DNA of 62,364 nt, filler included, from Basidioascus undulatus (GCA_000826855.1; 17 parts of 17 records of this genome joined end to end with filler, not necessarily neighbours in it), one strand, 5' to 3'. Shown: positions 2,490-57,468, counted from the whole stretch's first letter. Notes: generated from the letters alone by a model not told the origin. A program made the numbers and translations.

Positions 2490-2553
2490 GATACTCTACC
2501 ATTGAGCCAGCCGGCCATGACCGACGCAGGGATCGAACCTGCAACCCCCTGAT
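2490..2553 (-). tRNA. Candidate circularly permuted tRNA-Trp gene (3' half 2553-2518, 1-nt spacer 2517, 5' half 2516-2490 cut by the contig end)
   Basis: Minus strand reads ATCAGG-GGGTT-GCAGG-TTCGATC-CCTGC-GTCGGTC-A, then T, then GGCCGGC-TG-GCTC-AATGGTA-GAGT-A-TC. The acceptor strands GGCCGGC/GTCGGTC pair at all 7 positions (two G-U). The D arm and GGTTGCAGGTTC resemble fungal tRNA-Trp and the discriminator is A. The anticodon itself is not in the window. Confidence 0.75.
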
Positions 2554-3052
2554 CTCGACTGCCACTTGCTTATTCCTATGGTGCTAATTGTTCTGCTTTT
2601 ATTCTTTTCTTGCCGCCCTGCTCTCACCAGCGGGTCGATCTTGGTCCTCTGCCCCTGCCATACGATGATTCATAATCGACGATACAGAGCACCAGTCAAA
2701 GGTCTTCCAACTTGGAGCACCGAGAACCTGGCTACGTTCAGTCCCTGGCAATGTCCCCACTGTTGAGCCGTCAGGCTGTCCGGCACAACGTCCTCCAACC
2801 TCAAGCAGACTTTGCTGCCGTCCCGCATGCAAGGCGCACACATGCCAGACACAAGCCAGCGAACAAAAAATGGAATATCATAAGAGTATATAATCGCACA
2901 TGTCATCAAACAAAGCTTCGGAGACCTCTCGTCACCCTCCTTCGTCCACCATACAAAGCACACGAACGCAAACCCTCGAACCGAAGAAAAGCGGAGACAG
3001 AAGGGCGAATGGAAGCGCAGGGAGAAAAGCGAGAAAGCAGCGGCGCTTGGCG

Positions 3053-4876
3053 CTAAGTGCTGATCCCCAGCCCGGCAGCGTACGACCCGTCCTCGTGCCG
3101 GAGCTGGGGCGCGCCGTTTAGCGCCGGCATCTGCTGCGGGGGCGGGGCGTGGTGGTGGTGTGGTGGTGGGGCGGCATGGTGTGATTGTGGGGGTGCGGAA
3201 GAGGAGGTGGAGGAGGCTGTGGGCGCGGGGGTCGATTCCCAATGCATTGGCTGGCCCTCCGCTTCGAGATTCTGTGGATCCCACGGGAGTCAGTAAAAGG
3301 AACAAAGGAAGAAGGCTGGATGGTGCAGAGGGAAGCAACGCACCTCCAGCAGCATATCAAGCACCTGGTCCACATCCCCCGGCGCAAGGCCCGCAGCATT
3401 CGCGATAAGCCTGCGGTAGTCCTGCATCCTCCTCCCAGTACCCTGCTCCCTCTGGAGCCTGACAAGCTCCCCAAACGCGGCCCTCCTGCGCTCGCGCATC
3501 TCCGCCAGTCGCTCCCGGAGCGTCTCGGCCGCCTGCGCGCGCGTCTCGGGCGCGGCGGGCGGGCAGAGGAGCGCGAGGAGGTCGGAGTTGTCCTGCGGAG
3601 AGGAGGATTGGGCGTCGGACGAAGAGAAGGCAGTGGGGTTCTTGAACCGTTTCTCGCGCTCGTCCTCGTCGTGCGCGTACTTCTCCCAACCGGCTCGGTA
3701 GCGGCGTGTCATCTTGTCCTCGAGCTGGCGTTCCAGTCCAGCAAGCGCAGCCTTCGCGTCGTTGAGCCCCTCGGCGCGGTCCTTGAGCGCCTGGATGTGC
3801 TTGCGGGACTCGAGGATGTCCGTCTGGATGTTCCTGAGCAGGCTGTGCGCCTGCGCCAGGTCGCGCTCCTTGCCCTGTAGCTCGGCGTCGAAGCTCGCCG
3901 CCAGCGAGTCCATCAGGCCGGCCATGTCGCCCATGCAGCGCCCCGCCGCGCGCTGGGCCGTCTCGGACGCGTATAGGTTCGCGGGCGGGGCGTAGACGGA
4001 CGTGTCGGGCGGGTGGAGGCGGAGGTGCTGGCTGTGGAGTACGGGGGAGGACCGGAAACGCTCGTCCTCGAGGATGTAGTCCTCTGCAGTCTTGCCGTCC
4101 TTGTTCGCGATCTTCGGGTCCGCGCCGTGGTCGAGCAGGAGCTTGACGAGGCGCTTCGAGCGCGCACGCGCGGCGAGCGTCAAAGCAGTCTCTCCCTCCT
4201 CGTCCTGGAAGTTGATCACGTCCGCGAGCTCGTCCGGGTACTGCACGAGCTTGGCGAGAATCGTCTCCATGTAGTAACGCGCCGCGTGCGTCTTGCCCTT
4301 CGTTAGCGCGAGGTCGACGACGTGATGGAAGACGGTGCGGTCTTGCCGGTCGAGGTTGAGCGTCGACCGGTGCAGGAGCTCGTACAGCTCTGGGAACTTG
4401 CGGATGTCGTAGTTGTTGGAGAACATGACCGCGCGCATGAGCGCCGTCTGCTCCGCGCCATTCACGCGGTAGATGTCCGCCCCCGCGGAGAGGAGCAGCT
4501 TGACGACGCGCACGCGGCCCATCGCGCACGCCCAGTGCAGCGCCGTGTGCCCCTCGTCGTCGATCGACATGTTCGGGTCAAAGTCGGCGGGTGGGTTCAC
4601 GAGCAGGTCGGGCACCTGCGTCGACTCGGAGATGAAGTAGTCGAGGATGATGTCCTCGTAGCTCGGCCCCTCGCTCGACGCAGGCAGGACGGGCCCGCCC
4701 GCGCCGCGCAATGACGGCGCAGGCCGGTACGCATTAAGATGGTACCCGTTCGGCTCGGCCTTGCGCTTGCGCAATGGTGTGCCCGGCGCGCCCTCGGTAT
4801 CGCTGTCGCCCGCCTCGCTCGCGCTCGCAATGGGCGAGGGCGTGCGCGATGCGGACGACTGTACCGACGGCGAGGG
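3053..4876 (-). CDS. Mbp1/Swi4/Res1/Cdc10-family cell-cycle transcription factor, 3' partial (ankyrin repeats and coiled coil)
   Basis: IDDEGHTALHWACAMG, QTALMRAVMFSNNYD, AARYYMETIL and QDEEGETALTLAARARSKRLVKLLL are typical of the family. The last intron (~3343-3272) leads to NLEAEGQPMHW...GIST-stop. Confidence 0.9.
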
Positions 4877-19813: not shown

Positions 19814-20079
19814 GGCGATTTCGCCATCCTTCCAAAGCCATGCGGCACCCCCCCTTCCATCCGCAACCGCTCCAACACCCTCTCCAGCGCCTCCCCCCCG
19901 CCTACCGCGAGCGCACAAGCCAGTGCGAACCCCCCGAGCGCGCGGAGCGCGATGCGCGACGCCCCCCGTCGCCGGCGCAGGAGCAGGCGCAGGAGAGCGG
20001 GGGAGACGTCGAGCGTGTAGCCGAGGACGAAGGCGCGCAGGGCGGGGGCCCAGTGCGCGAGGGAGCCAGAGGGGAGCAT
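19814..20079 (-). CDS. Integral membrane protein (possibly TMEM135-like), 5' partial
   Basis: MLPSGSLAHWAPALRAFVLGYTLDVSPALL resembles the fungal PxLRAYxLGY start. Confidence 0.45.
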
Positions 20080-23523: not shown

Positions 23524-23590
23524 GCCTCGCTATCGGTAGAGCGTGAGACTCTTAATCTCAAGGCTGCGGGTTCGGCCCCCGCATGGGGCT
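23524..23590 (+). pseudogene. tRNA-Lys(CTT) pseudogene lacking the 5' D-stem strand
   Basis: GCCTCGC-TA-[GCTCAA missing]-TCGGTAGAGCG-TGAGA-CTCTTAA-TCTCA-AGGCT-GCGGG-TTCGGCC-CCCGC-ATGGGGC-T, then TTTT. Also A58 replaced by G and a C7-A66 mismatch. Confidence 0.85.
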
Positions 23591-42450: not shown

Positions 42451-42811
42451 CCCGTCAATAACAGGGACATGTATTCGAAGGTCACGTATAGCTGTTTGAT
42501 ACACAAAGTATAAGTGCTGAGTTTCAGGAAGCCCAGTGTCAATTGAGGCGGAATACACCAGCTCCACTGCCGTTTTGCGCGTCGAGGAACGCACCGAAGT
42601 CGGGACTGGTGTCAACGCGCTTGACCATCGACCACCTACGAACTCGCCATTGTGGTCTGCGCTCCAAAATCCCCTTACCATCTTCGGAATGTTGCTTCCC
42701 CCCCCCCCCCCNNNNNNNNNNNNNNNNNNNNNNNNNNNNNNNNNNNNNNNNNNNNTTAATTAATTAANNNNNNNNNNNNNNNNNNNNNNNNNNNNNNNNN
42801 NNNNNNNNNNN

Positions 42812-54950: not shown

Positions 54951-55015
54951 GGCCGCTTAACTCAGTTGGTAGAGTGTTTGCTTAACACGCAAAATGTCGC
55001 AGGATCGATCCCTGC
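54951..55015 (+). tRNA. tRNA-Val(AAC), intronless, 3' acceptor strand cut off by the contig end
   Basis: GGCCGCT-TA-ACTC-AGTTGGTA-GAGT-G-TTTGC-TTAACAC-GCAAA-ATGTC-GCAGG-ATCGATC-CCTGC; D, anticodon and T stems all pair. Confidence 0.92.
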
Positions 55016-57237: not shown

Positions 57238-57468
57238 ATGGTTAACGTCCCTTCGATCACGCTCACCGAAGCATCCGTCACAGCGGGCTCCATCGCCCTC
57301 GCCCTCGCACTCTACGTCCTCACCCGGCCCCAGCCACAGGCGCAGGCGGAAGGACAGGCGCAGAGGCAGGGCAAGAGCCCAAAGAAAAACAAGAAGAAGG
57401 GCGGGAAGGGCAAGGCGTCTGCAGCGGCTGCTGTTGCTCCTCCGGCTGCAGCTGCCCCCCCCCCCCCC
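57238..57468 (+). CDS. Hypothetical signal-anchored protein, 5' partial
   Basis: MVNVPSITLTEASVTAGSIALALALYVLTRP followed by the basic stretch KSPKKNKKKGGKGK. Confidence 0.6.

Follow-up and report, generated by a model that had tools for sequence, protein, structure and literature searches.

Circularly permuted tRNA genes, in which the 3′ half of a tRNA is encoded upstream of its 5′ half, are placed in algae, a nucleomorph, and archaea only in the relevant part of a 2026 review (PMC13578239). As described in parts of a 2014 review, the type II genes, which are split at 37/38, are ordered as leader, 3′ half, intervening sequence, 5′ half, and trailer, with intervening sequences of 1–74 bp, the 1-nt case being that of Thermofilum pendens, and 37/38 is the commonest junction of the permuted tRNA genes of green algae (PMC3978253). 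Maturation is described there as splice-type cutting and ligation to a circle, followed by the action of RNase P and tRNase Z and by CCA addition; the B-then-A order of the promoter boxes suits TFIIIC badly, and the known hosts seem to use upstream TATA-like elements (PMC3978253). By the same partial account, most eukaryotes are without permuted tRNA genes, and splicing of the yeast type could in principle handle a 37/38 junction (PMC3978253). Two routes of origin, from tandem genes or from a reverse-transcribed circular pre-tRNA, are put forward in those parts of the review as a hypothesis and do not represent an observed class (PMC3978253).

The present analysis suggests that a unit of the same order is carried, in many copies, by a fungus. 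The window, which is the whole stretch of DNA that was analyzed, comprises 62,364 bases; artificial linkers (N44-TTAATTAATTAA-N44) connect the 17 contigs of which it is made, so that adjacency across linkers means nothing. Sixteen of the contigs measure 2.3–2.4 kb and stand in falling order of length, and one, at 19814–42711, measures 22.9 kb. The contig at 2490–4876 begins inside the tRNA-Trp-like unit, with nothing but linker to the left of 2490; it is this linker (N44, TTAATTAATTAA, N44; 2390–2489) that hides the anticodon loop and the trailer. Several contig ends elsewhere in the window (42698–42711, 57455–57468, and others) are C14 homopolymers or CT/GA-rich low-complexity runs, which suggests that the assembly breaks at hard-to-sequence stretches as well as at repeats.

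Judged by the protein encoded beside the unit, the host is a fungus, basidiomycete-like, without a close relative in the database searched. The same contig (2490–4876) carries an ankyrin-repeat ORF at 3293–4774 on the minus strand, which matches Pfam Ank families and has APSES/Mbp1-type transcription factors as its best relatives; among the 120 matches listed, those that bear an organism name are all basidiomycete, at 53–61% identity. The fungal source assumed in the original prediction is thus upheld. Two other tRNA genes lie in the window. One, a tRNA-Val (AAC, by eye) at 54951–55015 on the plus strand, is cut after 65 nt by its contig end, with an Rfam tRNA model match at 54958–55015; the contig of the permuted unit stops 64 nt in, a parallel that had been pointed out from the start, and contigs of this assembly tend to end about 64–65 nt into repeated tRNA sequence. 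The other, a tRNA-like gene at 23524–23590 on the plus strand, scores 32.4 bits against the Rfam tRNA model (gathering score 29) and receives no ARAGORN call; by eye it has an anticodon loop with CTT (Lys) and an odd D arm, which would suit either a pseudogene or a tRNA of unusual form.

The unit is read on the minus strand. It opens with a leader of about 31 nt that is common to the copies of the family (2554–2584, delimited by eye from contig loose ends against the window) and whose 3′ end at 2554 reads ...TGGCAGTCGAG, directly before A38. There follow the 36-nt tRNA 3′ half, from A38 to discriminator A73 (2553–2518), which contains the 3′ strand of the anticodon stem, a 5-nt variable region, the T arm, and the 3′ strand of the acceptor stem; a one-nucleotide intervening sequence, T, at 2517, between A73 and G1, with junction-spanning contigs in two sequencing runs (X1 and X2, see below); and the 27-nt tRNA 5′ half, from G1 to C28 with position 17 absent (2516–2490), which contains the 5′ strand of the acceptor stem, T8, a D stem GCTC/GAGT, and a D loop with GG before it is cut by the contig end. 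The order of 3′ half, one T, and 5′ half is therefore as it was originally described. A pairing script gives an acceptor stem of 7/7 pairs between the halves (two of them G-T), a T stem GCAGG/CCTGC with 5/5 pairs around the loop TTCGATC, and a D stem of 4 bp; T27–C28 are able to pair with G43–G42, and all visible invariant tRNA positions are intact in the window copy. With seven acceptor pairs, two anticodon-stem pairs, and intact D and T arms, the unit bears out, as far as its visible letters reach, the earlier claim that the two halves belong together. CCA is not encoded in the unit. By consensus, the B box falls in the 3′ half (2530–2539, minus strand) and the native A box in the 5′ half (2499–2509, minus strand). 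As far as the visible letters go, the unit encodes a tRNA whose circular permutation falls at the canonical intron position, 37/38; from the likeness of its halves to eukaryotic tRNA-Trp we regard it as a putative tRNA-Trp, the anticodon lying beyond the contig end.

Like the type II genes of Ostreococcus, Micromonas, the Bigelowiella nucleomorph, and Cyanidioschyzon merolae, as these are portrayed in parts of two reviews (PMC3978253, PMC13578239), the unit has its 3′ half first and on the same strand, a short intervening sequence, a break at the canonical intron site, no encoded CCA, and an AT-rich stretch upstream; its one T at 2517 falls within the 1–74 bp range given above for intervening sequences. 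Unlike them, it has a fungal host, a Trp-like isotype, and an intervening sequence of only 1 nt. Moreover, the algal genes are single genes, whereas this unit is dispersed in some ten copies or more that have a leader in common, and it is known here to position 28 from DNA alone. The permuted tRNA-Tyr(GTA) gene of T. pendens, as reported in the same partial source, likewise has a one-nucleotide intervening sequence, but it is archaeal and single, its junction is at 59/60, and its CCA is encoded (PMC3978253).

The original prediction located no 5′ half ahead of the 3′ half, and this was borne out. The D-arm 15-mer, with up to 2 mismatches allowed, occurs a single time in the window (0.09 expected), and the 207 nt upstream score 20 against the unit, no better than shuffles (18.2 ± 3.3, with 151 of 500 reaching 20). 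The 3′ half is thus found without the complete upstream tRNA that a dimeric or tandem arrangement would place before it. The leader may conceivably be a decayed earlier copy of the unit; these 207 nt are without significant likeness to it, and by eye the last 15 nt of the leader resemble the D loop plus TCGAG.

Three sequencing runs contain the contig and were searched as Logan contigs: X1 (2025) and X2 (2014), from two studies, and X3, from the same sample as X1. Either X1 or X2 could be the source of the window, not both. Over 2490–2890, 39 contigs from X1 and 43 from X2 were aligned, accumulating to the left of about 2575, the details below being those of the 19 pieces listed. The locus's own contigs, record 8 (20,022 nt, X1) and record 16 (2,324 nt, X2), match 2539–2890 with zero differences at word depths of 51.6 and 14, respectively; both begin at 2539, so that the continuation of this particular locus into the junction rests on the window's assembler. 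The junction itself is carried by shorter contigs, which are below the bridging rule (<31 letters each side of 2517) and each differ from the window at 1 position: record 3 in X1 (2492–2547, depth 472.7, about 9x flank) and records 11 and 12 in X2 (2492–2547, depth 175.4, about 12x flank; 2495–2547, depth 298.3, about 21x flank). Word depth is not copy number, and these ratios are taken only as “roughly ten or more”; the per-bin depth sums, which reach 9013 in X1, count overlapping contigs together with the T arms of other tRNAs and are not copy numbers either. Two contigs do bridge the junction, record 1 (18,542 nt, X1) and record 9 (4,220 nt, X2), which align over 2490–2556 with 5 differences and continue for kilobases beyond 2490. 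They therefore represent a paralogous locus that has the same join of 3′ half, T, and 5′ half inside long contigs in both runs. X3 covers 2490–2559, with no cover at 2560–2890; its contigs appear transcriptome-like, and the run is labelled “DNA?”. The runs listed for the contig included none recorded as RNA.

Beyond the junction, the contigs part company. The 12 rows of loose ends listed all lie on the leader side, at 2548–2576, and lead into at least eight different upstream flanks, several of which are T-rich on the unit's strand and several of which continue into contigs of 1–50 kb (records 2, 7, 10, 13, 14, and 15). The hint in the original prediction that the unit is itself multicopy thus proved correct, with at least eight unrelated flanks in two runs and a leader of about 31 nt common to the copies. 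As these contigs read, the family is one of dispersed permuted tRNA-Trp-like units, in roughly ten or more copies, in a fungal genome, and it shows the many dispersed copies with unrelated flanks that mark a SINE. Divergence among the aligned copies is uneven, with few changes in the tRNA parts and in the proximal leader and many in the distal leader: between the main junction contig and the window, 1 of 56 nt differs, and in the alignable copy the 19 nt of leader that adjoin A38 match apart from one inserted letter, whereas 7 of the next 13 differ. Constraint on the tRNA parts and on the leader's splice-site side would account for such a pattern better than neutral decay would. In records 2 and 10 the similarity ends at 2548, which leaves them without the leader and positions 38–43; other copies diverge at 2568 and 2576, and 13 of the 39 X1 contigs are only 90–95% alike. 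These diverged and truncated members imply that the family includes copies that are not working genes.

Within the leader, 2554–2572 is conserved between copies and 2573–2578 is variable, and the CACCA at 2579–2583 recurs (as TGGTG on the plus strand) in 4 of the 12 rows listed and as CGGTG in a fifth, with unrelated flanks beyond. The leader had been proposed to be an intron remnant on the ground that it contains TGG-C-AGTC, complementary with one bulge to the expected anticodon arm. The stretch is there, complementary to an expected anticodon loop, and the chance that this 7-mer would occur, with no more than one letter inserted, in a 14-mer of the same composition is 0.0025, a post hoc figure; an intron remnant is a plausible reading of it, but not a unique one, because the same letters also resemble an A-box or D-loop motif. 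TGGCAG (2559–2564, minus strand), within the anticodon-loop-complementary stretch, is a near-repeat of the D-loop TGGTAG (2496–2501) 63 nt downstream. An A-box-like motif on the minus strand at 2562–2572, upstream of the B box, matches 7/9 specified positions of the A-box consensus by eye. Farther out, the AT-rich stretch AATAAAAG (2596–2603, minus strand), 12–19 nt upstream of the conserved leader, is a possible TATA-like element; AT-rich sequence likewise precedes each of the window's other two tRNA genes, about 20–35 nt upstream.

At the opposite edge of the unit, an X3 contig of 45 nt (record 17) covers 2490–2525 and extends exactly 9 nt past 2490, that is, to position 37 if there is no indel. 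This edge is the length of one contig, and its end could come from copies branching or from cover stopping; it is a weak but suggestive sign that the common block runs from the intron-like leader to position 37. A block with these limits resembles what would be left by the hypothesized circularized, intron-bearing pre-tRNA opened at its 5′ splice site, as modeled in part of the 2014 review (PMC3978253), and the leader would then be the whole intron. The complete unit would probably measure ~105 nt, made up of the leader of ~31 nt, positions 38–73, T, and positions 1 to 37, at on the order of ten loci. Another X3 contig (record 18, 93 nt) begins and ends with the same 30 nt and connects the D loop at 2496 with 2558, at the TCGAG upstream of A38; its period of 63 nt may reflect a 63-bp tandem duplication between the near-repeats TGGCAG and TGGTAG in some copy, or a chimera.

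In its native order the unit goes uncalled by the usual models. ARAGORN reports 0 genes in the window, none on the unit in native order, and none on the halves rejoined with 9 N, and at gathering score Rfam finds only the tRNAs at 23524–23590 and 54958–55015 in the window. A canonical cloverleaf of 72 nt is drawn by ARAGORN once 9 filler letters are used to reconnect the halves in silico; 3 of these letters are dictated by pairing with positions 39–41 and 6 are the loop of the original prediction, so that the anticodon is present by construction. The predicted fold of 97 nt is not a cloverleaf and has an energy of −26.6 kcal/mol, against −26.8 ± 3.3 kcal/mol for shuffles (z = 0.05), a comparison that is uninformative for a cut tRNA.

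Several explanations other than a gene must be set against these observations. An artefact of assembly or of the library, in which the ends of two tRNA-Trp genes became fused at the tip of a contig, would suit a junction that is at most 27 nt away from where its contig stops, in an assembly that is very fragmented, and whose own-locus contigs in X1 and X2 begin only at 2539. A junction resting on few or chimeric reads had been named in the original prediction as a ground for rejection. The junction was found, however, in contigs of runs from two studies, of which either but not both could be the window's source, at ~9 to 21x flank depth and also inside long paralogous contigs, all of which makes an artefact very unlikely; this reading is already largely refuted, and we give it next to no credence. 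It is a long shot, too, that the unit belongs to a structured noncoding RNA with a permuted tRNA-like module, as in YrlA, and is not a tRNA precursor. The bacterial YrlA (RF02553) likewise presents a T arm, a closed acceptor-like stem, and a D arm, and its model matches 2490–2572 at 32.5 bits (E 2.3e-5, 411-nt search), cut at the 3′ end, or at 29.3 bits (E 0.029) when the whole window is searched. Both scores are nonetheless far below the gathering score of 69, the host is eukaryotic, no Ro-binding stem was seen, any T arm with a closed acceptor stem and a D arm would match in this way, and the halves, once rejoined with filler, form a perfect tRNA-Trp-like cloverleaf and not a mimic of one. 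Since YrlA is the only Rfam model with this succession of arms, its match gives statistical support to the permuted topology, not to membership. Quite unlikely, if less readily set aside, is a relic, in which the 5′ half at 2516–2490 continues into an ordinary tRNA-Trp gene and the leader and 3′ half are a truncated tandem copy that travels along with it. The contig does end before the decisive letters, an ordinary gene would account for the conservation of the 5′ half, and part of the 2014 review mentions, as likely intermediates in green algae, tandem repeats of tRNA genes with introns and a permuted gene that has an additional 5′ half next to it (PMC3978253). Yet among the rows listed no contig has a 5′ exon end before the leader or before A38, and no joints were reported, with the proviso that short overlaps may escape alignment; a useless half would be unlikely to stay pristine, with 7/7 pairing, at about ten loci; and a 1-nt spacer leaves no room for the terminator of an upstream copy or the leader of a downstream one.

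More weight attaches to the proposal that the copies are an inert short interspersed family, SINE-like or made of retro-pseudogenes, with the same anatomy and perhaps transcribed but not supplying tRNA-Trp. In this scenario an end-processed, intron-bearing pre-tRNA-Trp would have been circularized at its acceptor ends, opened at the 5′ splice site, reverse-transcribed, and inserted repeatedly. With tRNA-derived SINEs the units share their shortness, their dispersal among unrelated flanks, a possible internal Pol III promoter, and the presence of diverged or truncated members; their similarity ends sharply, T-rich sequence (on the strand of the unit) makes up several of the upstream flanks, and some members are diverged or 5′-truncated (records 1, 2, 9, and 10, with divergence at 2548, 2568, and 2576 and with records 1 and 9 different at 5/67 nt). 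Furthermore, the exact abutment of A73, T, and G1 would be hard to reach by DNA duplication and easy by RNA ligation, and precisely such a route is proposed for the origin of permuted genes in the part of the review cited above (PMC3978253). Against inertness stand the uneven divergence, at 1/56 nt in the tRNA part versus 7/13 in the distal leader, and the intactness of every visible invariant tRNA position in the window copy. So far as is known, SINE heads keep the normal 5′-to-3′ tRNA order and have decayed cloverleaves, whereas this unit is permuted and its visible arms are perfect, the region beyond 2490 lying outside the contig; we know of no described SINE with a permuted tRNA head. On balance we regard an inert family as unlikely, although it deserves serious consideration, and the inert and working readings can both hold, for different members.

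Our preferred explanation, held tentatively and a little short of probable, is that the copies are real permuted tRNA genes that mature through a circular intermediate. The perfect visible cloverleaf, the uneven conservation, and block edges that fall at the 37/38 landmark argue for working genes, as do a family size and flank pattern that resemble those of an ordinary tRNA gene family. If this is correct, RNA polymerase III transcription would start near the conserved CACCA, perhaps aided by the upstream AT-rich element and possibly by the A-box-like motif of the leader, which, lying ahead of the 3′ half and its B box, would restore the A-then-B order. In the transcript, the last 14 nt of the leader would pair with the anticodon loop in the manner of an intron. 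The splicing endonuclease would then cut before A38 and after A37, tRNA ligase would join 37 to 38 to form a circle, and RNase P and tRNase Z would remove the single U before CCA addition; positions 29–37 and the trailer, like transcription, each processing step, and function itself, are predicted parts of this scheme. Several points weigh against working genes. The ~10 to 30 copies that the depth ratio would imply exceed the expected need of a fungus for tRNA-Trp genes, some members are diverged or truncated, the native order is called by no tRNA finder, and the fold of the 97 nt is no better than that of shuffles. Fungal Pol III normally needs an A box before the B box, and what the leader offers is a motif that only resembles one. 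Even for the archaeal precedent, the account consulted here leaves unsettled by what means an acceptor loop of 1 nt is opened (PMC3978253). In its most specific form the proposal would make these loci the working, perhaps the only, tRNA-Trp genes of the fungus and the first permuted tRNA genes in an opisthokont, with processing by the Sen endonuclease and a Trl1-type ligase, opening of the circle at the single U, an A-box-like leader serving TFIIIC-dependent Pol III, and spread by reverse transcription of a circularized pre-tRNA. We consider this full version possible but doubtful.

Searches for relatives and precedents gave little. Among the papers listed by a full-text literature search, with subscription journals outside its reach, none reports a fungal permuted tRNA gene, to judge by titles and abstracts; the D-arm 15-mer led only to an unrelated paper, and on tRNA-derived SINEs and on satellites in fungi nothing specific was returned. 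A search of prokaryote genome contigs for the exact junction gave 0 matches. A search of metagenomes for a T arm followed 15–30 nt on by a Trp-type D arm returned 7 loci, which look like bacterial tRNA operons of other tRNAs and were rejected as relatives. In one of the seven (L001, 487–535, minus strand, on a contig of 33% GC), a T arm, 19 nt, and a Trp-type D arm succeed one another, and the 130 nt viewed contain no obvious complete tRNA upstream of them; the other six are plain bacterial tRNA operons.

Even if the family is inert, it would still be an unusual tRNA-derived repeat, and it would be an annotation trap, because both ARAGORN and the Rfam tRNA model miss its copies. If functional, a permuted tRNA gene in a fungus would be new, such genes having come so far from a few algae, a nucleomorph, and one archaeon. 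A true fungal case would mean that the standard opisthokont tRNA-splicing machinery tolerates permuted genes, and it would provide a genetically tractable kind of host in which to study the circular intermediate. Furthermore, its many copies with a common leader would offer a direct test of the model in which permuted tRNA genes originate from a reverse-transcribed circular pre-tRNA.
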